DNA of 63,977 bases, filler included, from a bacterium (GTDB taxonomy: Bacteria; JBBIVP01), in assembly GCA_037439705.1 (NCBI GenBank). It is 7 parts of 7 records of this genome, joined end to end, with 100 filler letters (N's around TTAATTAATTAA, not from the genome) between each part and the next. Parts side by side here need not be neighbours in the genome. Positions count along the whole stretch, not along the records: positions 1 to 10,269 come from JBBIVP010000062.1; 6 more parts are not named here. One strand, given 5' to 3'. Position numbers and translations under genes: made by a program. The notes under the pieces were generated by a model that ran no database searches, was not told where the DNA came from, and worked only from the letters and a program-made list of their open reading frames with translations. Of the stretch, positions 794 through 61,777 are shown piece by piece (the first letter of the stretch is position 1; every line of letters starts with the position of its first letter).

Positions 794-3214
794 TTGAATT
801 TAAAAAGAATTTTGAGGGGAAGAAAAGCCTTAATAATTTTTATAGCAGGTTTTTCCGTTCTTTTAGGGGTTTTTCTTTATCTCTTCCTCCTCTACCTTTC
901 CCTTCCCTCAATTGAATACCTTCAAAATTATAAACCCCCCATAACTACAAGGATTTATTCTGCTGATGGAAAGGTAATAGGAGAACTCTTTCGTGAAAGA
1001 AGGGATTACATCCCGATTGAAAAAATTCCGGAGCACTTAATAAACGCCTTCATTGCCTCAGAAGACGCTGAGTTCTTCAGGCACAAAGGTATAAACCTGA
1101 AAAGTCTGGTAAGGGCAACTTTTAAAAACATAGAAGCGGGCGCATTTGTTCAGGGAGGAAGCACAATAACCCAGCAATTAGCAAAGATGCTCCTACTTTC
1201 ACCACAAAAAAAGCTCTCAAGAAAAATAAAGGAGATTTTTCTTGCCTTAAAAATTGAAAAGGGAATGTCAAAGGAAAAAATTCTGGAACTTTACCTCAAT
1301 CACATATATTTAGGAGGTGGAGCATACGGAATAGCCGAAGGAACAAGAACCTATTTTAGAAAGCCCGTTTCTGAAATCAGCATCGGAGAGTCCGCACTTT
1401 TAGCCGGGGTTCTCAAGGCTCCATCCCTTTATTCCCCGCAAAAAAATCCGGCAGGAGCAAAAACAAGACAGGTTTATGTGCTTGAAAGAATGCTTAAAGA
1501 AGGATTTATAAGCGAGCAGGAATATGAAGAAGCGATAAAAACTCCTTTAAGAATATACAGAACATACAGAAATCCATTCTTTTACGAAGGTGGATATTTC
1601 GCCGAAGAAGTCAGAAAGAACCTTCTTCAGAAATACGGAGAAGAAATTCTTTATACCCATGGCTTGAAGATCTGTACATCAATGATACTGGAACACCAGA
1701 AGGCAGGAGCTTCAGCGTTAAAAAAGGGACTTGAAAATTTTGACAGGAAAAATGGATTCAGAGGGGTTACAGGAAATATCAAGGAAGAAGAATGGGAAAA
1801 ATTTCTTGAAGATGTCCAGAAAAAGGAAATTATTGAAAGGTCTGATTTCTTTGAAATCCTTTCCGATGGTAGCACAGTTGAATATCCGGAAAGGGGGTTA
1901 AAAACTGGCGAGGTTTATACAGGGCTTGTAAGTAGTGTGAACGATAAAACAAAAGAAATAGAAATCAGGGTTGGCTTCTTTAAAGGGGTGATTTCCGAAG
2001 AAAATTTCTCCTGGACATTAAAAAGCGAAAATAAGCCTTCTCGGATATTTAAAAAAGGTGACATTATAAATGTAAGGTTAGAAGAAATAAAAAGCGGAAA
2101 ACTCATACTTTCACTCTATCAGAAACCTATGGTTCAGGGTGCTCTCATATCAATTGAAAACTCAACAGGATTTATAACTGCCCTCGTTGGAGGATATGAA
2201 TGGACAGAAACCCAGTTCAACAGGGCAATTCAGGCAAAGAGACAGGTTGGCTCTGCATTCAAACCAATTATTTATGCTGCTGCCCTCACTCAGGGCTTCA
2301 CTCCTGCTTCTGTAATTGAGGATATGCCGGTAGCGTATGAAATGCCTGTAAACGAAAAAGAAGCGGAAGAAATTCCTGAAAAGTGGAAACCACTTAATTA
2401 TGACATGAATTTAAGGGGTGAAATAACCTTAGCAGAAGCACTTGCAAAATCGGTGAATCTCGCGACAATAAGGCTTCTTTCAAAAATCGGGGTTAAAAAT
2501 GCAATTGACCTTGCAAGAAGTTTGGGCATAGAGTCTCCACTCCCTTACGAATTAACACTCGGTCTTGGCTCCGCCTCCCTGTCCCTTTTAGAACTAACGA
2601 GAGCATACAGCGTTTTTCCAAACAGAGGAATTCTCAGGGATGTGATATTTGTAAAAAAAATAGAAGACGCAGATGGAAATCTGATTATTGAAAACATACC
2701 TGCTGAACCTGATCTCAACTATCCAGAGGATACCAGAAAGGCTTATTACACGGCAAAAAGAGTTTATCCGGAAGACCTTTCATACATAATGGTTTCACTC
2801 CTTCAGGGAGTGGTCAAATATGGAACCGGATGGAAGGCAAAAGCTCTTGGAAGACCTGTGGGCGGGAAAACAGGAACAACAAACGACTTCAGGGATGCCT
2901 GGTTCATTGGATTTACACAGGATTATACCGTAGGGGTGTGGGTGGGATACGATAACCTAACGCCACTTGGCGAAGGAGCAACTGGAAGTGCGGTAGCCGC
3001 ACCTATATGGGTTGATTTTATGAAAGAAATCCTCAAAAATGTTCCGTTTTCGGATTTTTCTTTACCTGATAACATTGTGTTCAGAAGAATAGACCCTGTA
3101 ACAGGCTATCTTGCAAAACCTGGAGATGAAAACTCCATACTCCAGGCATTCATTGAAGGGACAGAACCACAGACCTATTACGAAGATTATATGGAGAAGA
3201 TGAAGGGGTTTTAA
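794..3214 (+). CDS. mrcA: Penicillin-binding protein 1A (transglycosylase/transpeptidase)
   Basis: N-terminal TM; EDAEFFRHKG and GGSTITQQLAK transglycosylase motifs; SAFK, SVN and KTGT transpeptidase motifs. Confidence 0.93.
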   Translation: MNLKRILRGRKALIIFIAGFSVLLGVFLYLFLLYLSLPSIEYLQNYKPPITTRIYSADGKVIGELFRERRDYIPIEKIPEHLINAFIASEDAEFFRHKGINLKSLVRATFKNIEAGAFVQGGSTITQQLAKMLLLSPQKKLSRKIKEIFLALKIEKGMSKEKILELYLNHIYLGGGAYGIAEGTRTYFRKPVSEISIGESALLAGVLKAPSLYSPQKNPAGAKTRQVYVLERMLKEGFISEQEYEEAIKTPLRIYRTYRNPFFYEGGYFAEEVRKNLLQKYGEEILYTHGLKICTSMILEHQKAGASALKKGLENFDRKNGFRGVTGNIKEEEWEKFLEDVQKKEIIERSDFFEILSDGSTVEYPERGLKTGEVYTGLVSSVNDKTKEIEIRVGFFKGVISEENFSWTLKSENKPSRIFKKGDIINVRLEEIKSGKLILSLYQKPMVQGALISIENSTGFITALVGGYEWTETQFNRAIQAKRQVGSAFKPIIYAAALTQGFTPASVIEDMPVAYEMPVNEKEAEEIPEKWKPLNYDMNLRGEITLAEALAKSVNLATIRLLSKIGVKNAIDLARSLGIESPLPYELTLGLGSASLSLLELTRAYSVFPNRGILRDVIFVKKIEDADGNLIIENIPAEPDLNYPEDTRKAYYTAKRVYPEDLSYIMVSLLQGVVKYGTGWKAKALGRPVGGKTGTTNDFRDAWFIGFTQDYTVGVWVGYDNLTPLGEGATGSAVAAPIWVDFMKEILKNVPFSDFSLPDNIVFRRIDPVTGYLAKPGDENSILQAFIEGTEPQTYYEDYMEKMKGF

Positions 3215-3476
3215 AAAATAAATATGCTCCCGCTAACTTGTAGAAGCACATACACATAGTTACTATGGGAAAGGGGGGAATTTAAGCTAAAAGAATTAAA
3301 ACTTGGATGAAAAAAGATCCTAAATTCAAAACCTGCCCGCAAAACCATATAAGAAGGATGTTTTTACAATTTTATCAAAAAGTTGAGATATAAACCAGGT
3401 CCCCCTCTCCTCCCCTCAAACAACACCTAACAAACAAAAACTTGTAGAAAATTTTTTGAGGGTGTAAAATTTATCT

Positions 3477-4394
3477 ATGTATTTGCTTATTCCCCTCATT
3501 CTTATCTTGTTGCTTCCCGAGATTTCTTATGCCTGGGGACCTGCTACACACATAAAACTCGGCATAGATGTTCTTTCCAATTCTTTTATTCCACCTGTAA
3601 TTTTTAACCTCATAAATGAATTTCCATATTATTTTCTCTACGGAAATATAGAAGCTGATGTAATCCTATGGAAGAATAAAATAGAGTACTCAAAACACTG
3701 TCACAACTGGAAGATTGGATTTGAAATCCTGAAAACAGCAAACACTCCTGAACTAAAGGCTTTCGCTTATGGATATCTCTCCCATCTTTCAGCAGACATA
3801 ATAGCCCATAACTTTTTCATTCCCATAGAGATGCTCCTTAACTATCCCTACAAAAAAGGCAAGCATCTTCCATGGGAAATAAGGTATGACAGATGGATAG
3901 ATGGGGAGGCATGGGAGGTTTTAAAAAAGATCAAAAAAGAAATAGACCCTTCCTGTGACGAACTCTTAAAAAATATGCTTGAAAGGAAATTCTTTTCTTT
4001 CAAAACCAACAAAAGGATATTTACCACATTTCTTACACTTCAGAGATTAAACAGGTGGAAACTGTTGATGAAAAACAAAAAAATTTCAGGTGAAACCCGT
4101 TTTTATTATGACCTTTCCCTCTTCGCGATGGTTTCCATCCTGTCAAAGGAACTAAATTCACCGTTTGTAAAAATTGACCCAACTGGTATCAGGGTGATGA
4201 AAAAGGCTCAAAGGCTCATAAGGGAACTAAAAGGATTAAAAGACGGGATTAGAGAAGTAAAAAGAAAGGTGCTCCTCAAAAAACTTTTAGCCTATCAACC
4301 CTATTTACCTGCTGATTGTCAGAGGTTGCTTTTCAGTGCTATAAGTTCAAGAACCCTGTATGCAAATTCATCCTTTGAACACTTCGGGATGTGA
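3477..4394 (+). CDS. Zinc-dependent phospholipase C family protein
   Basis: Signal peptide followed by AWGPATH, HNW and HLSADIIAH zinc-ligand motifs. 3' end overlaps convergent coaBC. Confidence 0.8.
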   Translation: MYLLIPLILILLLPEISYAWGPATHIKLGIDVLSNSFIPPVIFNLINEFPYYFLYGNIEADVILWKNKIEYSKHCHNWKIGFEILKTANTPELKAFAYGYLSHLSADIIAHNFFIPIEMLLNYPYKKGKHLPWEIRYDRWIDGEAWEVLKKIKKEIDPSCDELLKNMLERKFFSFKTNKRIFTTFLTLQRLNRWKLLMKNKKISGETRFYYDLSLFAMVSILSKELNSPFVKIDPTGIRVMKKAQRLIRELKGLKDGIREVKRKVLLKKLLAYQPYLPADCQRLLFSAISSRTLYANSSFEHFGM

Positions 4395-6296: not shown

Positions 6297-7589
6297 ATGA
6301 AAGTTCTTATCGCTCCATGGGGAGACCCTTACAGATGGGAAGAAGTGGAATATGAGGCAGAAGGAGAAATAGTCAAATCAAGAAATTCTACTAAACTTCT
6401 TCTGAATAGCACAGGTGCTACCAGAATTGTAGTTATTGTTCTTGATACACTAAGCGAAGTAAAGGAGTATAAATCTTATTACGAACTCTCTAAAAAAGTA
6501 GAAGAGAAAGTTAAAGAGTATATCAAATCATTTCTCAAGTTAGAACTGAATAAAATAGATGTGGTAGTTGCTCCCGGAGTTGGCAATTTTGAAAACAAAA
6601 TTTTCACCGGAAACATGAAGGACTACTATTCCTTTATTTTGCACGAACTTTCAAACCGCCTTATTCCGGAACAGGATATGATTTCAGTGTATCTCGACCT
6701 TACACACGGAATTAACTTTATGCCCGTTCTTACATATACGGCTGTGAATAAAATCTGTGGAATACTCGCTGTAAAGAAAAAAGTGAATTTCACAGTTTTT
6801 AATTCGGAACCATACACTTCAGGAAGACACAGGCTCTATATTCATAAAGTTATGGAAAAGGAAAAAATGGAATTCAATCCACCGGAAAGAAAGATGCTTG
6901 ACAAACCCCGACTCCTCAAGCCATTATCGGGGTTTCCAGAAGAAGAATTAAAAAACTTTGACAGAAAATATTGTTATTCTCACAAAGACGAAATCAATGC
7001 CTTTCTCGGAGCCCTTCAGGACGGACTACCCTTAGCTATGTTAACTTTTTATCCGGAACTGGAAGAAATAGCAGAAATTTTAAAAAGCAGTGTAGAGGGT
7101 TATAAAAATTATGTGGAAATCAAATTCATTAACGACAATAAAATTCAGGTTCAAAGAAAAACCTGTTTTACATCAAATTTTGATGTGCTCACAGAAGCAT
7201 ATTTATGCACAAGGATAATCGGGTGGAAAAATAAAACCGAAGTCTCTCTGAGCGAACTCGAAGACATGGTCAGAAGTTTATTTAAAGGAAAGGACAGGGT
7301 AAGGTTATGCATAATTGAGAATGAAATTCAGAGCATCAAAAAGAACCTCGATTTCTTTACGGATAGGTGGATGTTATACAGTGAAGCCTATGAGAAAGTT
7401 CACCAGAATGTGAAAGACATAGAAAGCAGAATCAGTTCTCCCCACAAGAGACACTTCTTCGCTCATGCTGGATTTGAACGAAATCTTGTTGAGATGAAAA
7501 AGGAGAATAACGAAATATTCGTAAGGTATAAAGAAACCTCCCTGGATACGGTTAAAAAATGGGCTCAGGAAGGGCTGAAAGAAGAGTGA
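6297..7589 (+). CDS. csx1: CRISPR-associated CARF-HEPN ribonuclease Csx1
   Basis: IAPWGDP N-terminus, DLTHGINFMP CARF motif, C-terminal HEPN RHFFAH (RxxxxH). Confidence 0.9.
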   Translation: MKVLIAPWGDPYRWEEVEYEAEGEIVKSRNSTKLLLNSTGATRIVVIVLDTLSEVKEYKSYYELSKKVEEKVKEYIKSFLKLELNKIDVVVAPGVGNFENKIFTGNMKDYYSFILHELSNRLIPEQDMISVYLDLTHGINFMPVLTYTAVNKICGILAVKKKVNFTVFNSEPYTSGRHRLYIHKVMEKEKMEFNPPERKMLDKPRLLKPLSGFPEEELKNFDRKYCYSHKDEINAFLGALQDGLPLAMLTFYPELEEIAEILKSSVEGYKNYVEIKFINDNKIQVQRKTCFTSNFDVLTEAYLCTRIIGWKNKTEVSLSELEDMVRSLFKGKDRVRLCIIENEIQSIKKNLDFFTDRWMLYSEAYEKVHQNVKDIESRISSPHKRHFFAHAGFERNLVEMKKENNEIFVRYKETSLDTVKKWAQEGLKEE

Positions 7590-8629
7590 GGAAAAAACAT
7601 ATCCTTCTCGCCCTGTGCGGGCTTAATCCTCAGGTTATAACTGAAACATTTTATTATCTCTATGGGATTAAAAAAATCCCGGTTAAGGAAGTTTACCTCA
7701 TCACCACAGGTCCCGGGGAAAGGAAGGCGAAAGAAACCCTTATTGACTCAAAGATATTTTACAGGATGTGTAAGGAATTAAATGCTGAAGATGTGAAATT
7801 CGGCGAGGACACAATTTTTCTGATAACAGATAAAAGAGGAATTCCGTTAGAAGATATCCGCACAATAGAAGATAATGAACGAGTTGCGGAAACAATGTGG
7901 AGTATAATAAAAGATTTTACCGCAGACGAAAATGTAATAATTCACTTCTCGGTGGCGGGAGGAAGAAAAACGATGAGTATCTATGGAGCAATTATAATGT
8001 CTCTTCTCGGGAGAAAGGATGACAGGCTTTATCATATTCTTGTGGAAGAGGAAGAATCAACAGATTTTTATTATCCCCGGAAAAAAGATGAAGAAAAGAA
8101 ACTCCACCTTGTTGAAATACCTTACATCAAGTTAAGGGAGGTGTTCGAAATCTCGGAAGAACATCTGAGTTTTGTCCGCAGAATAAAGAATTATCAGAAA
8201 GAATTGATGAAAATAAGACCATCAAAAATCACCGTAAATTTTGAAGACAAAATAATAAATGCTGGAAGATGCGGTGAATTCAAACTCTCTCCCCGTGAAT
8301 TTTTCGTATATTCGCTATTTATCTCAAAAAGAATGAGTTGTTCCTGCAGGGAAGGTTGCGAAAAATGCTTTTTGAGAATAGACGAATTTCTACAACCTGA
8401 AAATCTCAACTCACATCTTTCTAAATATCTGAGGTATTTTTCTGATATTCAGGAAACCGTTGAAAACCTGAACAAAGAGACCTTGAGAGAACTCATTACC
8501 AGAATAAACAGAAAAATTGACAGAAGCGATATATTTGTCAATTCCCTATTCAAAATCCAGAAAATTGGAAGAGCAAAGAATTATAAATATGGTTTGAAGT
8601 TACCCCGTACAAAGCTCACAATGTTGTAA
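7586..8629 (+). CDS. CRISPR-associated NE0113-family CARF protein (ring nuclease/Csm6-like) with C-terminal Cys cluster and wHTH-like domain
   Basis: GLNPQVITET, LEDIRT and SVAGGRKTMS motifs. GTG start overlaps the csx1 stop (GTGA). Confidence 0.85.
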   Translation: MRKKHILLALCGLNPQVITETFYYLYGIKKIPVKEVYLITTGPGERKAKETLIDSKIFYRMCKELNAEDVKFGEDTIFLITDKRGIPLEDIRTIEDNERVAETMWSIIKDFTADENVIIHFSVAGGRKTMSIYGAIIMSLLGRKDDRLYHILVEEEESTDFYYPRKKDEEKKLHLVEIPYIKLREVFEISEEHLSFVRRIKNYQKELMKIRPSKITVNFEDKIINAGRCGEFKLSPREFFVYSLFISKRMSCSCREGCEKCFLRIDEFLQPENLNSHLSKYLRYFSDIQETVENLNKETLRELITRINRKIDRSDIFVNSLFKIQKIGRAKNYKYGLKLPRTKLTML

Positions 8630-8756: not shown

Positions 8757-9767
8757 ATGGAAAAACGAATAAACCTTTTTATCACTGAACAGGGTTCTGT
8801 GGTAAAAGTTGAGGAAGGCAGACTCGTCATAAAGAAAGGAAGTGAAAGGCTCATAGAGGTTCCTCTCATCCATCTCAGACATGTAGTCCTTTTTGGAAAT
8901 TCCACCATCACTCCCCGTGCTGTTTCGAAACTCCTGAAAGAGGGAGTATTTATTACATTCCTCACAAAACTCGGAAAATTTCAGGGAACAATTCTCCCCG
9001 CGGTTCATCCTGATGGATTGATAAGAAAAATTCAGGTAATGAGAGCAGAAGACCCTTCATTTCGAACAGAGGTGGCAAGAGAAATCGTTGCTACCAAAAT
9101 TCACAATTCAGTGAATTTTTTGAAAACGAGAAGGAAAAACAGGGTTCTGCTCAAAGAAAACATTTTTGAGTTAATAAAAATGGAAGAAAAATTGAAATCC
9201 GCCTCAAGCCTCGATCAGATAAGGGGTATAGAAGGTATCTCATCCCGGATATATTTTTCCACCATACAAAACCTTTTCGTGAACGATTTTTCTTTTGGCG
9301 GAAGAAAAAAACATCCGTCTCCAGACCCTGTCAATGCCCTTCTTTCCCTCTCCTATACCCTTCTCTACTCAATATGCTTTTCATTTCTCCACATTAACGG
9401 ACTTGACCCATTTATTGGATTCTTTCATGAAATGAAAAGAGGACATGCTTCCTTAGCCTCTGACCTTGTAGAAGAATTCAGGGTGCCATTCTGCGATTCT
9501 TTAATTCTGAGGCTCCTGAATCAGGGTTACTTTTCAGAAAGTTCTTTCCTTTACACGGGGGAGGGGGTTTTTCTTGAAAAAAATTCTTTAAAAAGATTTT
9601 TAAAAGAGTTTTCAGCCTTTCTGGACGGAAAGGTAATTTCAGATGGCATTCAGCTTTCAAGATGGCACCTGATTGAACACCAGGTAAGAAAGTTCAGAAG
9701 GAGCATTATAAGTGGAGAACCATACACGGGATATAAAACAGGAGAGACAAACGATGAGGACTCGTAG
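8757..9767 (+). CDS. cas1: CRISPR-associated endonuclease Cas1
   Basis: RGIEG, DPVNALLSLSY, GFFH and LASDLVEEFR motifs; catalytic E/H/E present. Confidence 0.96.
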   Translation: MEKRINLFITEQGSVVKVEEGRLVIKKGSERLIEVPLIHLRHVVLFGNSTITPRAVSKLLKEGVFITFLTKLGKFQGTILPAVHPDGLIRKIQVMRAEDPSFRTEVAREIVATKIHNSVNFLKTRRKNRVLLKENIFELIKMEEKLKSASSLDQIRGIEGISSRIYFSTIQNLFVNDFSFGGRKKHPSPDPVNALLSLSYTLLYSICFSFLHINGLDPFIGFFHEMKRGHASLASDLVEEFRVPFCDSLILRLLNQGYFSESSFLYTGEGVFLEKNSLKRFLKEFSAFLDGKVISDGIQLSRWHLIEHQVRKFRRSIISGEPYTGYKTGETNDEDS

Positions 9768-10077
9768 AATGTATGTGGTTGTAGTTTATGATATAATAGA
9801 AACAGCGGGAAATTTTCGTGAAAAAAGGAAAAACCGAACCCGTCTGTACAAAAAGTTAAAAGGATTTGGCTCACCGGTCCAGTACAGCGTATTTGAATTC
9901 AATCTCACTCCCTCTCAGAGGGAAAAATTAATTGAGGTTATCAATAACTACATAGAAGAAACAGACAGGGTGAGCATCTACACGCTGTGTGAGGAATGCA
10001 GGAAAAGAATAGAACGCCTTTTTACGAAACCGCGCGAAGAACCAATTTTTGATGAAATTTCATCAATAGAGGTTTGA
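9754..10077 (+). CDS. cas2: CRISPR-associated endoribonuclease Cas2
   Basis: VVVYDI, VQYSVFE and DRVSIYTLC motifs; directly after cas1. Confidence 0.95.
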   Translation: MRTRRMYVVVVYDIIETAGNFREKRKNRTRLYKKLKGFGSPVQYSVFEFNLTPSQREKLIEVINNYIEETDRVSIYTLCEECRKRIERLFTKPREEPIFDEISSIEV

Positions 10078-10078
10078 G

Positions 10079-10269
10079 ATGTCCGAAGCAAAATTATATG
10101 TAAAAGGTGCCTATTTCCCCGCATCAGAAGAAATGGAATTTACCATTCTGATAGAATATGATGAAAAACAAATCCTTAAAACAGAAAGGGTAAAGAAGAA
10201 AGGTTCAGCGCTTCAGGCGGAATATCTGGGTCTTATCAGGGCAATCCATTATCTAAAAAACTTAAAAAA
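10079..10269 (+). CDS. RNase H-fold (RNase HI/RVT_3-like) protein, degenerate, truncated by contig end
   Basis: KLYVKGA (canonical xxYxDGA) and SALQAEYLGLIRAI (canonical TNNxAEYxALIxGL). Starts 1 bp after the cas2 stop. Confidence 0.65.
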
Positions 10270-10369
10270 NNNNNNNNNNNNNNNNNNNNNNNNNNNNNNN
10301 NNNNNNNNNNNNNTTAATTAATTAANNNNNNNNNNNNNNNNNNNNNNNNNNNNNNNNNNNNNNNNNNNN
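10270..10369. other. Artificial contig linker (N44-TTAATTAATTAA-N44)
   Basis: Six-frame-stop spacer flanked by Ns. Confidence 0.99.
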
Positions 10370-10467
10370 GGAGAGTAGCACAGGCATTCTTGCCTGTGAG
10401 AAGAAGAGCAAAAAGGAGAGTAGCACAGGCATTCTTGCCTGTGAGAAGAAGAGCAAAAAGGAGAGTA
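10370..10467 (+). repeat. 45-bp tandem repeat (2.2 copies) carrying a GTAG-type REP palindrome
   Basis: Identical units at 10370..10414 and 10415..10459, each with GTAG-CACAGGCA-TTCT-TGCCTGTG. Confidence 0.85.
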
Positions 10468-10611
10468 AGAGAGTGGAGAATTGGTAAAGGTTGGGATGAA
10501 TTTTTTAGAAAAAGAATGGATGTGAGGAAAAAGATAAAAATGAAAAAATTCAAAAATAAACCAATTGCCAAAAATATCCCCTCCTTTTTAAGAGACCATT
10601 TCTATTTTCCC

Positions 10612-10658
10612 TTGACATTTATTACTATTGTAATAAAATTTTAATACTATGGTAAAAA
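10612..10658 (+). promoter_or_regulatory. Sigma70 promoter with two tandem palindromic operator-like sites upstream of the acyl-CoA dehydrogenase pair
   Basis: TTGACA at 10612 and TAAAAT at 10634. TTATTAC-TATT-GTAATAA at 10619..10636, with a 15/18 copy at 10641..10658. Confidence 0.6.
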
Positions 10659-10685
10659 CCTTACAAAACTTTAAGGAGGTGGAAG

Positions 10686-11813
10686 ATGGCAATAGATTTT
10701 TCTTTGAATGAGGACGAGAGGATACTCGTTGAAACCGTAAACGATTTTGCACAGAAAGAGATTGTTCCGAACATAAGAACTATTGAAGAAAACGGCATCT
10801 CTGACGAATTGAGGATAAAGGCTGTTGAGATGGGGTTGATGGGCATAGAATTTCCAGAAAATCTTGGAGGTTCAGGACTTGGAATGTTTCACAGGGTACT
10901 GGTGACCGAAGCAATTTCCTCAGGAGACCCCGGAACGGCGTATTCACTTTTCATTCACCTTCCCTATTCCTATTTTCTTCTTGAACTTGGAAATGAAGAA
11001 ATAAAGGGAAAATATCTCAAACCTGTAATCACAGGAGCGAAAAAAGCCTGCCTTTTGAGGTCTGAATTCTTAACCGATGATGTGATTACACCATTGAAAT
11101 GGGAAAAGAGTAAAGAGGGTTACAAAATTTCTGGAAGGGGAGTAATTGAGGTTGAAAATCCTGATTTTGTCCTTCTTCCTGCAAAATCGGATAATAAAAT
11201 CGGATTTTTTCTTCTTGATGGTTTGAATGCCATTGAGTTCGGAAAAACGCTTCATAGATGTGGTGTTCAATCATCTCCTGCAAAGGAAGTCATTTTTAAG
11301 GATGTTGAATTGAAAGAAAATATGTGTATTACAGAAGATGCTTTTTCACACGAGAACTTTTGGAAGGCAGTGGTTAGGACGAGACTTTTCATATCAAGTA
11401 TTCTTCTCGGATTAGCAAAAACCGCTCAGGAGTATTCCCTCAAATATGCTATGGAAAGGGTAGCTTTTGGTCAGCAGATAGCAAAGCATCAGGCAATATC
11501 CTTTATGCTTGCTGATCTTGCAACACAGGTTGAAGCAATAAGGCTTATACTCTGGAAAGCAGTTTATGAGTTTGACAGAAATTCATCCTCTCCCGAAAAA
11601 CAAATAAGGTCTTCTGTCCTTGACTGGTCAATAGAAGCATACCTTCAGGCAGTAGATTATTCCTCTTCTATTTCTGCAGATGCGGTTCAGATACTCGGCG
11701 GTCACGGATACATAAAAGACCATCCTGTTGAAAAATGGATGAGGGATGTAAAAGAGTTCGCCAATGCGTTCGGAAGACATGATGCTTTCAGAATAGTTAT
11801 TGAAAACCTTTAA
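10686..11813 (+). CDS. Acyl-CoA dehydrogenase family protein, probably non-catalytic partner subunit
   Basis: RVAFGQQI and QILGGHGYIKDHPVEKWMRD present; lacks the ALTEP and C-terminal I(Y/F)EGT motifs. Confidence 0.85.
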   Translation: MAIDFSLNEDERILVETVNDFAQKEIVPNIRTIEENGISDELRIKAVEMGLMGIEFPENLGGSGLGMFHRVLVTEAISSGDPGTAYSLFIHLPYSYFLLELGNEEIKGKYLKPVITGAKKACLLRSEFLTDDVITPLKWEKSKEGYKISGRGVIEVENPDFVLLPAKSDNKIGFFLLDGLNAIEFGKTLHRCGVQSSPAKEVIFKDVELKENMCITEDAFSHENFWKAVVRTRLFISSILLGLAKTAQEYSLKYAMERVAFGQQIAKHQAISFMLADLATQVEAIRLILWKAVYEFDRNSSSPEKQIRSSVLDWSIEAYLQAVDYSSSISADAVQILGGHGYIKDHPVEKWMRDVKEFANAFGRHDAFRIVIENL

Positions 11814-11832
11814 ATTTTAAGGAGGTGAGGCA

Positions 11833-13032
11833 ATGGAGTTAGAGTTAACACCAGCACAAAAAAATGTCATTGAAATGGTGAGGTGGCTTGCTCTTGAAAA
11901 ATTGAGACCACTCGGTCTTGAGTATGATAAAAAGGGAGAACCCATCCCTCCTGATCATCCTTTTTTCAAAGAAGCAAAGGCTATGGGAATAAGGATGGCT
12001 CTTGGAGATATTGGTAAGAGAAGAAAGGAACTCACCACAAAAGAGGGACCGGGCGAGATGGCAAGGCTCGGCATACTCGCTGCGGAGGAGATAGCCTATG
12101 GAGATACGGGCGTTGCTATGAGCCTTCCTGGTCCAGGGCTTGGTGGTCCACCAATACTCATAATGGGCACACCCGAACAGCAGGATAGATTCTTTGGCAT
12201 GCTTGAAGGAGATGAACCGAAATGGGGAGCATACGCGTTGACAGAGCCAGGCGCAGGTTCTGATGTGGCAATGATAAAAACCACCTGCAGAAAGGAAGGA
12301 AATTACTATGTTTTAAATGGGACAAAGATGTTCATAACAAACGGAGCAAGGGCTACATGGAATGTTGTATTTGCTACAATAGACCCATCCCTTGGAAGGG
12401 AAGGGCACAGGGTATTTGTTGTAGAAAAGGGGACCCCAGGCTTTTATGCTGGAAAAATTGAAAAGAAGATGGGATTAAAAGCTTCAGAGACAGCAGAGTT
12501 GGTTTTTGATGAGTGTAAGGTTCCGGTTGAAAACCTTCTCGGAGGCGAGGAAAGGTATAAAGAAAGGGCTGGTTTTAAGGCTGCAATGGAAACTTTCAAT
12601 ATGACAAGGCCTGCTGTTGCAGCAATGGGCATAGGAATAGCGAGAGCGGCATACGAATACACAAGGGATTACTTCAAGGAAAATTACATGCTCTCAAGGC
12701 CAATTCCCCTTTATCATTCAATAAAAGAAAAATTAAATACAATGAAAAGGCTCCTTGATACCGCAAGGCTTCTCTGCTGGAAGGCAGCCTACATGATTGA
12801 TTACAAACTTCCCAATGCAAAGGAGGCATCAATGGCAAAGGCTTATGCTCCCCCTGTCTGTCTATGGGTAACATCAAAGTGTATTGACCTTCTCGGTCAG
12901 GAGGGAACCCTTGAATACCACCATCTTGTTGAGAAATGCTACAGGGACATAAAGGTGTTTGACATATTTGAAGGAACAGGGCAGGCTCAGAGAATTGTTA
13001 TATCAAGGAGGCTATTTTCACAATTTGAATAG
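11833..13032 (+). CDS. Acyl-CoA dehydrogenase
   Basis: YALTEPGAGSD, KMFITNG and RDIKVFDIFEGT motifs. Confidence 0.93.
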   Translation: MELELTPAQKNVIEMVRWLALEKLRPLGLEYDKKGEPIPPDHPFFKEAKAMGIRMALGDIGKRRKELTTKEGPGEMARLGILAAEEIAYGDTGVAMSLPGPGLGGPPILIMGTPEQQDRFFGMLEGDEPKWGAYALTEPGAGSDVAMIKTTCRKEGNYYVLNGTKMFITNGARATWNVVFATIDPSLGREGHRVFVVEKGTPGFYAGKIEKKMGLKASETAELVFDECKVPVENLLGGEERYKERAGFKAAMETFNMTRPAVAAMGIGIARAAYEYTRDYFKENYMLSRPIPLYHSIKEKLNTMKRLLDTARLLCWKAAYMIDYKLPNAKEASMAKAYAPPVCLWVTSKCIDLLGQEGTLEYHHLVEKCYRDIKVFDIFEGTGQAQRIVISRRLFSQFE

Positions 13033-20619: not shown

Positions 20620-20719
20620 NNNNNNNNNNNNNNNNNNNNNNNNNNNNNNNNNNNNNNNNNNNNTTAATTAATTAANNNNNNNNNNNNNNNNNNNNNNNNN
20701 NNNNNNNNNNNNNNNNNNN
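20620..20719. other. Artificial contig linker
   Basis: N44-TTAATTAATTAA-N44. Confidence 0.99.
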
Positions 20720-21266: not shown

Positions 21267-24200
21267 TTATGCAAATTTTCGTCTCTTCACAATTTTGTAA
21301 AGGGAGGGGACAAAAATTAAAGTTATCATTGTTGAAGCGAAAAGTCCGCTTATGACAACTATTCCGAGCGGTCTCCATCCTTCAGCTCCTTCCTTTCTCA
21401 TGAGGACAAGAGGAACCATGCCTAACATGGTGGTAAAGGCAGTCATAAGAACAGGTCTCAATCTTCTTTTCGCTCCTGTCATTATGGCTTCTTCCAGTTT
21501 CAATCTTCTTTTCAAAAGTATGTTCATATAATCAACAAGAACTATGGAGTTTTTCACAACAATTCCTACAAGTACAACCGCTCCAACTATGGATACAATG
21601 TTCAGGGTATGCCTTGTTACAAGAAGGCCCAAAAGCACACCAGTTATTGCAAAGGGAACAGCAAACATTATGATGAAAGGGTCTATGAGGGATTCAAACT
21701 GTGAGGCAAGTATTGCATAGACAAGAAACACCGCAAGGAAAAACGCAAGTCCTAAAGCACTGAAAGCCTCCCTCTGTTCCTCAACCTGACCTGCAAATGT
21801 GACATCAACTCCCTCTGGAAGCTGAATTGAAGGAAGCCTCTTTTTTATGTCATTAACCACATCTCCGAGAGGTCTTTTGAAAAGGTCTGCTTCAACCCTT
21901 ATCATCCTTGACTGCGATTTCCTCAATATCTCAAGCGGACCTTTCCTTTCCTTGATATCTCCCACATTTAAAAGTCTTGTTGACCTTCCACCATAAGGTG
22001 AGATAAGAGGAAAATTTTTCAAATCGTCAAGCTCATTTCTGTATTCCTTTCCAAGTCTAACCACTATATCATAATCTTCTCCCTTTTCTCTGAACTTTGA
22101 AGCGGAAATTCCCTCAAATCCTGCTCTCAATTCAGTTGCGAGAAATCCGAATGGAAGTCCAAAGGTCATCGCACTTGACCTTGAAAGGGAGACCCATTTT
22201 TCAGGCTTTGCTTCCTCGTAGGTCTTACTGACAGCGTGTGTGCCGGGGACCTCTTTAACGATGTTATATATCTCATACGCTACATTTTTGAGTTCCTCAA
22301 GGTCTTCACCATAAATCTCTATGGCTACGGGTTTTATTCCACCAAGAACCGTTGAGGCCATGGGGTCCTGCATAGAAAACTCAATTTTTGTGGGTCCCGG
22401 GACATTTTCCTTTACCTTTCCTTCAAAAAAGTGCGCAATCTCTTTTGCGGTTCTCCTTCTCTTTTCCTTATCAATCAGCCTCACCATCATCATGCCCGTA
22501 TATGTATCTTCTCTTGTTCCCATGATTGTTCCCCATCCTGTTTCAGTGGGTCCAGCCCTCGTTATCATGCTTTTCAATTCAGGAATTCCCCTTCTTGCAA
22601 TTTCTTCTATTTGCCTGTTGACTCTATCAGTAAGTTCAACCCTTGTTCCCGCAGGAAGTTCAAGAGTTCCCCTGAACTGTCCCTGGTCTTCCTCCGGGAA
22701 AAATTCAGTTCCTATGAACCTGATACAAATAAGGCTCAGGATGAAAACCGCTATTCCAACAGAGATTACTGTTTTTGGTTTTCTTATGGCAAACGAAATG
22801 ATTTTTTCGTAGAAATTTTCAAGGTCATTATACCATTTCTCTGAAATGGAATAGGCTTTGTCAAAAATTGTAATTTTGCTTTTTATTTTCAGGAACCTTG
22901 AAGCGAGCATCGGGGTTAAGGTTAAAGAAACGAGAAGGGATGTAAGGATTGTTACGCATACAATCATTCCTAATTCTTTGAAAAGGATTCCTGTAATTCC
23001 CTTTATGAAAACTATTGGAAGAAAGACCATCACGATTGTGAATGTAGATGCCATAACAGCAAGTCCCACCTCAGATGCTCCTGTGACTGCGCTCTCTTCA
23101 GGTGAAAGACCCGAAGAATGATGGCGTGATATGTTTTCGTAGATAACTATGGCATCGTCAACTACCATCCCTATTGCTATGGCGAGTGAAAATAGTGAAA
23201 ACATGTTTATTGAGGAGTCGTTAAGGAAGAGAAAAATGAATGCAACTATAAGGGAGAATGGTATTGAAAGTCCAATTATAAAACTTCCCTTGATTTCCCT
23301 TAAGAAGAGAAAGACAACAAGAATTACAAGAAGACCTCCTATAAAAACAGCATCTCTGAGATTTTCTATCGCCAGCCTTATAAAGTCGGATGCGTCAACA
23401 GTTAATTCAAAATGGACATCAGCAGGTAATTTCTTCTCCAACCTTTCCATTTCCTTTTTGACCCTCTCCGCAACCTCAACTGTATTTGTTCCTGACTGTT
23501 TCTGAATGAACATTATAAGTCCCGGTTTTCCATTAACCCTCACAATGGTTTCTTTTTCTTTAAATGAATCTTCAACCCTCGCTATTTCTTTAAGCCTCAC
23601 GGGAACGGGATTCTGGAAGGTAAGTGCTGAAAGGGGCTCTTTAAATTTGAAGCCCACGATTACCTCTTCAAGTTCTTTTAGGCTCTTAAACTCGCCAGGG
23701 GTTCTTATTGTGTAATCCATCATTCCGAACTTTATATGTCCTGTTGGAATTGTAAGGTTTTCAGCCTTTATTGCATTTATCACCTGGTTCATTGATATTC
23801 CTAAAGATTCCATTTTTTCTTTGTCCACATTTACATGGATTTCCCTCTCAGGACCACCTATAAGCATAACAAGAGCCACTCCCGGAAGTCTCTTTAAGGG
23901 NNNNNNNNNNATAACCCTGTCTTCAAGGAGTTTTCACAATTTCGGATATGTTTCTTCTGCTCAAACACCATAAAACAGGATGGGCCACATGTCCATATCA
24001 AACTTGTAAATGGCCGGTGGTTCAATGCCCTCTGGAAGCCATCTCTTCGCCATATCAAGCCTTGAACGGACATCGTTCGCTGCCTCACCCATCTCCGTTC
24101 CCCAGTTAAACCTCAAACTCACAACAGAAATGTTTTCTACAGAACGGGATTCTATCTCCTTTAGATTTGGAACTGTTGCCACATAGTCTTCAATCACTTC

Positions 24201-30929: not shown

Positions 30930-31029
30930 NNNNNNNNNNNNNNNNNNNNNNNNNNNNNNNNNNNNNNNNNNNNTTAATTAATTAANNNNNNNNNNNNNNN
31001 NNNNNNNNNNNNNNNNNNNNNNNNNNNNN
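30930..31029. other. Artificial contig linker
   Basis: N44-TTAATTAATTAA-N44. Confidence 0.99.
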
Positions 31030-41236: not shown

Positions 41237-41336
41237 NNNNNNNNNNNNNNNNNNNNNNNNNNNNNNNNNNNNNNNNNNNNTTAATTAATTAANNNNNNNN
41301 NNNNNNNNNNNNNNNNNNNNNNNNNNNNNNNNNNNN
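41237..41336. other. Artificial contig linker
   Basis: N44-TTAATTAATTAA-N44. Confidence 0.99.
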
Positions 41337-51536: not shown

Positions 51537-51636
51537 NNNNNNNNNNNNNNNNNNNNNNNNNNNNNNNNNNNNNNNNNNNNTTAATTAATTAANNNNNNNN
51601 NNNNNNNNNNNNNNNNNNNNNNNNNNNNNNNNNNNN
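51537..51636. other. Artificial contig linker
   Basis: N44-TTAATTAATTAA-N44. Confidence 0.99.
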
Positions 51637-61677: not shown

Positions 61678-61777
61678 NNNNNNNNNNNNNNNNNNNNNNN
61701 NNNNNNNNNNNNNNNNNNNNNTTAATTAATTAANNNNNNNNNNNNNNNNNNNNNNNNNNNNNNNNNNNNNNNNNNNN
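61678..61777. other. Artificial contig linker
   Basis: N44-TTAATTAATTAA-N44. Confidence 0.99.

Follow-up and report, generated by a model that had tools for sequence, protein, structure and literature searches.

A rare cas2-coupled RNase HI-like protein with a degenerate active site and a putative role in type III spacer acquisition

A truncated gene behind cas2

What kind of protein is encoded by the small gene that begins directly behind cas2 in this bacterial cas cluster, and what might it contribute to the Cas1–Cas2 pair whose genes it adjoins? We refer to this cas2-coupled gene with an RNase HI fold, and to its product, as X, both for the copy in the window (the whole stretch of 63,977 nucleotides analysed here) and for its relatives. 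In the window, X is represented by its first 63 codons (10079–10269, + strand), recognized from their translation and from the RNase HI homology and catalytic columns of the relatives; the 3′ end of this piece is the end of a contig. The stop codon of cas2 (TGA, 10075–10077) is followed by a single g and then by the start codon of X (ATG, 10079), with the sequence AGAGG located 8 nt upstream of that ATG. These coordinates agree with the earlier note on this DNA, which had placed the start of X 1 nt past the cas2 stop, and both of the motifs that it had named, KLYVKGA and SALQAEY, are present in the visible 63-codon translation, MSEAKLYVKGAYFPASEEMEFTILIEYDEKQILKTERVKKKGSALQAEYLGLIRAIHYLKNLK. 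X is readable to 63 codons only, as also stated there, because contig 1 stops at 10269. A nominal open reading frame (ORF) of 80 amino acids (10079–10321) was rejected as a real gene, as it reads into an artificial linker. In the window, the contig end cuts short what is a stand-alone gene of some 150 codons, leaving its 5′ part.

The linker in question (10270–10369) is a non-biological contig joint of the form N44-TTAATTAATTAA-N44. Six such joints, spaced about 10.3 kb apart (10270–10369, 20620–20719, 30930–31029, 41237–41336, 51537–51636 and 61678–61777), divide the window into seven contigs of about 10.2 kb, and a 10-N scaffold gap is located at 23901–23910. ORFs and repeats that span one of these artificial joints are artefacts, and contigs that are adjacent here may not be neighbours in the genome.

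The cas cluster of contig 1 lies on the + strand. Its first gene, csx1 (6297–7589), encodes a CARF–HEPN protein (PF22230 Csx1_CARF, E = 4.3e-41; PF09455 Csx1_HEPN, E = 5e-18; TIGR01897, E = 2.7e-78). It is followed by the gene for a CARF protein of the Cas_NE0113 family (7559–8629; PF09623, E = 1e-36, residues 23–214; TIGR02584, E = 1.3e-43), the NCBIfam name of which is ring nuclease Csm6 family, and then by cas1 (8757–9767; PF01867, E = 1.6e-83; TIGR00287, E = 7.3e-76) and cas2 (9754–10077; PF09827, E = 3.5e-20; TIGR01573, E = 2.1e-16), which starts with an ATG at 9754 and shares 14 nt with the end of cas1. No CRISPR array was found on contig 1. A tblastn search of the seven contigs with the proteins of a complete related locus (L001, described below) found no effector genes and returned only the known X fragment. 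As a side observation, about 140 C-terminal residues of the NE0113 protein (7559–8629) have no Pfam match; the architecture of this protein, including the C-terminal part, recurs in three related loci (L001, L002 and L004) with 46–55% identity over the full length.

A rare family of single-domain proteins

Taken alone, the X fragment (P0001) has no match in Pfam, NCBIfam or the PDB sequences. When 1.84 billion representatives were searched exhaustively with HMMER, just two relatives reached E ≤ 0.001; they have 151 and 153 amino acids and align to fragment residues 1–63 (E = 8.1e-11) and 4–60 (E = 2.0e-6), respectively. Among 5.8 billion clusters, a profile search recovered 12 members of the family, 150–160 amino acids long (E = 3e-79 to 2e-26), together with five weak matches (E = 3e-6 to 9e-3); the latter are ordinary RNases H, bearing PF13456 and PF00075. 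One family member is annotated as 'hypothetical protein, Calditerrivibrio nitroreducens' (Deferribacterota). The window fragment, the 12 database proteins and five variants translated from metagenome loci together form the alignment of 18 sequences used below.

All 17 full-length sequences are intact, single-domain proteins of 150–160 amino acids, which speaks against the proposal, made when only the fragment was in view, that X might be the N-terminal domain of a larger fusion. Searches for such a fusion, with the family profile among proteins of 281–2000 amino acids and with the fragment among longer proteins, returned no fused form, although both are weak evidence. Nor were relatives found in plasmid, phage or viral collections, and scans of genome collections with Cas1 and with the X family alignment gave pattern matches and zero confirmed relatives.

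X is under purifying selection. The ratio dN/dS is 0.14 for the L002/L003 pair, 0.06 for L005/L007 and 0.05 for L005/L006; the value of 0.42 for L003/L004, at a dS of 0.03, reflects too few changes to weigh, and saturation prevails among the more distant pairs. The family is very rare and thus no general requirement of type III adaptation: with about 17 distinct sequences found, X is a lineage-specific add-on rather than the instance of a general rule.

An RNase HI fold

The RNase H fold that had been suggested from the motifs of the fragment is borne out, for the relatives, by profile and by structure comparison. This fold consists of a five-stranded mixed sheet with helices packed on its flanks. 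A profile of 13 X sequences matches Sulfolobus tokodaii RNase HI (3aly/2ehg) in the PDB with E = 1.3e-8, LC11-RNase H1 (4h8k/3u3g) with E of about 1e-5 and Rv2228c (3hst) with E = 0.005. An AlphaFold2 model was obtained for P0003, a relative 46% identical to the fragment (pLDDT 83.8, pTM 0.76). Its top Foldseek matches in the PDB are all RNases H1, the best being 3aly (E = 5.4e-10, TM 0.71/0.75), and Foldseek aligns it to 3hst with an r.m.s.d. of 2.2 Å across 125 columns. A language-model look-up also gives RNase H clusters.

Family models recognize X at a distance. NCBIfam NF041175 ('ribonuclease HI', a Thermoprotei model) matches 12 of the 13 sequences with a best score of 49.4 bits against a cutoff of 140, and X scores 29 bits with NF041306 against a cutoff of 300, far under the cutoffs of these RNase HI equivalogs. 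Pfam RVT_3 (PF13456) matches five of the 13 at E ≤ 0.1, with P0003 reaching 22.7 bits against a cutoff of 21.6. The predicted RNase HI fold is sound for the X family and reaches the window fragment by way of homology: the fragment matches full-length relatives, and the family of these is RNase HI-like, so that the likeness of its motifs goes beyond chance, by transitivity only.

The closest family by descent is the S. tokodaii (Sto) type of type 1 RNase H (2ehg/3aly; 3u3g/4h8k; the N-domain of 3hst; PF13456). X shares with it the fold, sequence homology, a length of about 140–150 amino acids and the motifs AEY and GEY(R/K)V. However, active RNase HI is encoded by a housekeeping gene, whereas X is encoded in cas operons, and the two differ in the active site.

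Loss of the active site

Type 1 RNases H use four carboxylates (DEDD) to coordinate two catalytic metals, according to the accessible part of PMC9719913. We read the corresponding columns from alignments of the 18 X sequences to five active homologues and to E. coli RnhA (K-12 record). At the position of E. coli D10 (Asp1), X has Lys in 14 sequences, Asp in 3 and Leu in 1 (n = 18), and at that of E48 it has Glu in 18/18. At D70, the residue is Thr in 4, Ile in 8, Gln in 1, Lys in 3 and Asn in 1 (n = 17), and at D134 it is Phe in 1, Met in 5, Ile in 4 and Leu in 7 (n = 17). The D70 column is off by one in the RnhA alignment with respect to the active homologues; the adjacent column holds Asn or Ile, and the position is acidic in neither placement. 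An HMM alignment to 4h8k independently sets the Lys of X on the Asp of IYTDGG.

In the window copy, the first two catalytic columns alone are visible, as K and E. The loss of the first catalytic Asp, reported earlier for this copy, extends to the family, where the position is Lys or Leu in 15/18, and the relatives lack Asp70 and Asp134 as well. The expectation that homologues keep the exchange of Asp for Lys held for most of them: 13 of the 17 relatives (14/18 with the window copy) have Lys, and the other four have Asp (three) or Leu (one). The presence of Lys in 13/17 relatives argues against a sequencing error at the AAA (Lys) codon of the window. One public DNA run, which contained a quarter of the sampled sequence words, gave three low-depth pieces of 179–196 nt that cover parts of cas1 and no part of X; no RNA run was listed as a match.

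Judged by its sequence, X is a pseudo-enzyme, an RNase HI homologue without the full DEDD signature of catalysis, three of its carboxylates having been lost. The three sequences that retain Asp1 (P0014, L006 and L007) form a sub-branch in which Glu is also kept and the Asp70 and Asp134 columns are non-acidic; residual or altered metal binding is possible in this sub-branch. Elsewhere in the family, the Lys at the Asp1 position lies beside the invariant Glu and probably forms a salt bridge that fills the former metal site.

The changes extend to the TNN motif, the Asn pair of which (N44/N45 in E. coli RNase HI) we take to be substrate contacts. The N44 column is Ala, Pro or Thr and the N45 column is Ile or Leu in 18/18 sequences, whereas the T43 column carries a conservative Ser in 18/18. 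The loss of both Asn residues throughout the family weakens the idea that X binds RNA:DNA hybrids. Thus, compared with the Sto-type enzymes, X has replaced three DEDD carboxylates and the Asn pair of TNN.

Alongside these losses, X has conserved features of its own. The core is basic, with a pI of 9.2–9.7 in 17/17 sequences, and the block KGS(A/P)(I/L)(E/Q)AEY is conserved across the family. The C-terminal tail is acidic, of the form ...ID(F)D(E)ED(I/L)W(V/I), with a Trp that is invariant in 17/17; in the P0003 model the last six residues (146–151) have a pLDDT of <50 and are predicted to be disordered. The five active homologues have neither this acidic tail with its Trp nor a Lys at the Asp1 position.

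A constant position behind cas1 and cas2

The genomic context of X was compared between the window and eight metagenome loci (L001–L008), which account for three of the 12 database proteins and the five new variants. The genes cas1 and cas2 are located directly upstream of X on the same strand in 8/8 of these loci, and the gap between the cas2 stop and Met1 of X is 1–2 nt in 9/9 loci including the window. The cas linkage first noted for the window copy is therefore shared by the homologues in these eight loci, with the order cas1–cas2–X in all nine. Compared with the proteins of the window, Cas1 of the related loci is 47–58% identical and X is 28–48% identical.

Beyond this unit, the loci diverge. 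L001 contains a complete Csm (III-A) locus in the order csm6, NE0113 gene, cas1, cas2, X, APE2256 CARF gene, MNT–HEPN pair, cas10, csm2–5 and cas6. In L004, the locus extends to a RAMP gene and Cmr2, L005 contains a divergently transcribed Cas10 gene and four RAMP genes, and L008 has cas6 immediately after X and an STIV-B116-like gene upstream on the opposite strand. The effector modules thus vary (Csm, Cmr, divergent Cas10 with RAMP genes), and the adaptation pair is the sole constant partner of X. A gene for an APE2256 CARF protein lies downstream of X in 4/8 loci (L001–L004; 64.7–65.7% identity to the L001 protein), and its junction with X is a 10-nt overlap in L001 and a 1-nt gap in L004. 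The contig of L007 ends about 250 nt past X.

In the related loci, the DNA immediately downstream of X shows no CRISPR array. In L005 and L006, X is followed by about 370 nt with no ORF of at least 80 amino acids and then by the contig end; these independent contigs (non-coding parts 10457–10828 and 9968–10339, respectively) both stop exactly 372 nt past the X stop. Such a shared end is the pattern to be expected if assembly broke at the first array repeat beyond a leader; no repeat is visible in the sequence of either locus up to the contig end. In L001, array-like repeats are confined to the far end of the contig (19909–20058), where there are two 75-nt units, each composed of a 37-nt repeat, GTTAACAGAGGACTCATTCCCGACAGGGAATTGCGAC, and a 38-nt 'spacer'. 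The two units share 95% identity; either a CRISPR array whose spacers are duplicated or nearly identical begins here, or the assembly is at fault.

Further genes of note adjoin the unit in single loci. The STIV B116-like gene of L008 (203–526, − strand; PF08960, E = 4.8e-21) borders the cas1–cas2–X–cas6 unit; we take PF08960 to be the family of the Crn2/AcrIII-1 cyclic-oligoadenylate ring nucleases, and the L008 copy would then be host-encoded in a type III locus. In L001, a nucleotidyltransferase gene (PF01909) and a HEPN gene (PF05168), together resembling an MNT–HEPN toxin–antitoxin pair, lie between the CARF gene and cas10 (11347–11975). In L004, three small ORFs (77, 67 and 90 amino acids) lie between the NE0113 gene and cas1 (2885–3595).

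Candidate roles of X

On balance, we lean towards X being a non-catalytic accessory of the Cas1–Cas2 spacer-acquisition module linked to type III systems, an association read from gene order. X would be translated as the last cistron of a cas1–cas2–X unit in type III CRISPR–Cas loci, and its basic RNase H-like core may hold nucleic acid without cutting it. Candidates for the nucleic acid held are a prespacer end, a leader–repeat intermediate and, possibly, an RNA:DNA hybrid; any particular substrate deserves much less weight than the accessory role in adaptation itself. The acidic tail with its Trp would dock X on a partner, which might be Cas1–Cas2 or a host factor or enzyme. A complex prediction for the cognate Cas1, Cas2 and X of L001, run without controls, gave a score of 0.00, which does not bear on whether the three bind.

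Gene order also admits a role in the cyclic-oligoadenylate signalling or ancillary branch, with X as a partner or regulated target of the downstream Cas_APE2256 CARF protein. The tight placement of the APE2256-like gene behind X in L001–L004 favours such a role, and the window cluster is itself rich in CARF proteins (csx1 and NE0113). However, L008 has cas6 at that place, L005 and L006 have the stretch of about 370 nt with no ORF of at least 80 amino acids, and coupling to the CARF gene is seen in only 4/8 loci, compared with 9/9 for coupling to cas2. A nuclease-dead domain would, moreover, make a poor effector, and we regard a signalling role as unlikely.

Slimmer still is the chance that X regulates the cas operon, or that it chaperones or buffers the levels of Cas2 or Cas1, as a small basic binder that controls expression or restrains the integrase. 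The small size of X, its core pI of 9.2–9.7, its place as the final cistron of the adaptation unit and the non-coding DNA that it adjoins in L005 and L006 would all suit a regulator; but X consists of an RNase H fold with no DNA-binding regulator domain, and its translational coupling to cas2 points to stoichiometric production alongside Cas2 and away from a separate regulator.

A more specific form of the adaptation role, to which we give little credence, makes X a reader of hybrids or R-loops: it would bind RNA:DNA hybrids at transcribed invader DNA, dock on Cas1–Cas2 by its tail and steer capture to transcribed regions, possibly also setting spacer orientation. Should this be true, a type III system that is PAM-less and dependent on transcription would obtain productive spacers without a reverse transcriptase.

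It is very improbable that X has retained nuclease activity with a non-canonical site, one-metal or Lys-assisted, and trims prespacers or strips RNA from hybrids during acquisition. The invariant Glu (18/18) and the Asp1 kept in 3/18 could belong to such a site, and the Cas2/DEDDh fusion described in the accessible text of PMC10284694 is a precedent for a trimming nuclease linked to adaptation; set against this, the Asp70 and Asp134 columns are non-acidic in 17/17, Asp10 is Lys or Leu in 15/18, and type 1 RNases H use all four carboxylates for two metals (PMC9719913, same part as above). Finally, that X is a housekeeping rnhA that came by chance to lie beside cas2 and is now decaying without a function, as its lost catalytic residues and very narrow distribution might suggest, is hardly credible and already contradicted by selection and conservation, given 17/17 intact ORFs of constant length, dN/dS of 0.05–0.14, new conserved features (the Lys in place of Asp1 and the acidic tail with its Trp) and a position kept across loci whose Cas1 proteins are only 47–58% identical to that of the window.

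The preferred reading, an accessory of spacer acquisition, bears on a poorly understood matter, the choice of spacers by type III systems. For these systems, the target must be transcribed and correctly oriented, and they have, to our knowledge, no PAM. Each of the known helpers of Cas1–Cas2 (Cas4, Csn2, IHF, DnaQ-like trimmers and reverse transcriptase) has revealed a step of adaptation. X adds a structurally new candidate to this list, coupled to cas2 in all nine loci compared, maintained by selection and, by its predicted active site, nuclease-dead. The Lys/Glu pair and the acidic Trp tail offer experimental handles on it, and X would also provide a clean natural example of an RNase HI turned pseudo-enzyme.

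Relation to known systems

Inactive RNase H folds are known to serve as binders in defence, in the form of the dead PIWI domains of short prokaryotic Argonautes. X resembles these, by analogy only, as a putatively non-cutting RNase H scaffold devoid of its carboxylates in an immune system; it differs in belonging to the RNase HI branch, in the system in which it is found and in its partner. The tail has a counterpart in bacterial SSB, which has a disordered acidic C-terminal tip with a hydrophobic or aromatic end that recruits partner enzymes. Like that tip, the tail of X is acidic, predicted to be disordered and carried on a basic core, ending in Trp plus one residue; we claim no homology and treat the likeness as a lead.

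The DEDDh domain that is found attached to Cas2 presumably also belongs to the RNase H-like superfamily. Some type I-E systems have such a Cas2/DEDDh (DnaQ-like) trimmer-integrase, as described in the accessible text of PMC10284694. There, an active 3′–5′ exonuclease is fused to Cas2 in a type I system, whereas X has a cistron of its own, belongs to the RNase HI family, is apparently dead and occurs in type III loci. Among accessory genes of type III systems, the main text of Shah et al. 2018 (PMC6546367) describes Csx18, cluster 216 and the PrimPol cluster 227 as linked to adaptation. X is like these in being small, in adjoining type III cas1/cas2 and in its putative role in spacer acquisition, but none of the accessories in that main text is RNase H-like; the online cluster tables and supplements may differ. 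By role, then, as far as the accessible texts describe them, the type III adaptation accessories of Shah et al. and the Cas2/DEDDh trimmer-integrase are closest to X.

Databases of defence and CRISPR families gave no established name for X. In PADLOC-DB 2.0, no family matches more than one of the 13 sequences, and the best match (E = 5.8e-4) is to an unrelated JetB model; the cas models of NCBIfam/TIGRFAM and Pfam gave no Cas match, RNase H models being the only ones to respond. An RNase HI-like adaptation accessory is likewise absent from the accessible texts of PMC6546367, bioRxiv 10.1101/270033, PMC12669027, PMC11127173 and PMC6452270, the supplements of which may number it. The sole RNase H-fold accessory named in those texts is the DUF3800 nuclease of some VI-F/V-A2 (class 2) loci. 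X is thus apparently a rare cas2-coupled pseudo-RNase HI that is new to the literature, although the 915 PSSMs of the 2025 classification by Makarova et al. could include it.

Other features of the window

At the start of contig 2 (10370–10471), a 45-nt unit, GGAGAGTAGCACAGGCATTCTTGCCTGTGAGAAGAAGAGCAAAAA, is present twice in perfect tandem, followed by the beginning of a third copy. The unit contains the inverted repeat GCACAGGCA...TGCCTGTGA. Lacking spacers, the tandem does not qualify as a CRISPR array, and it could be either an assembly-end repeat or a regulatory tandem that precedes the ORF at 10686, which by eye is acyl-CoA-dehydrogenase-like. Rfam matches elsewhere in the window comprise the 3′ end of a 23S rRNA with a 5S rRNA at the start of contig 3 (20711–21255), a tmRNA on contig 6 (51819–52157) and a match to the 'pan' motif at the end of contig 2 (20454–20534).
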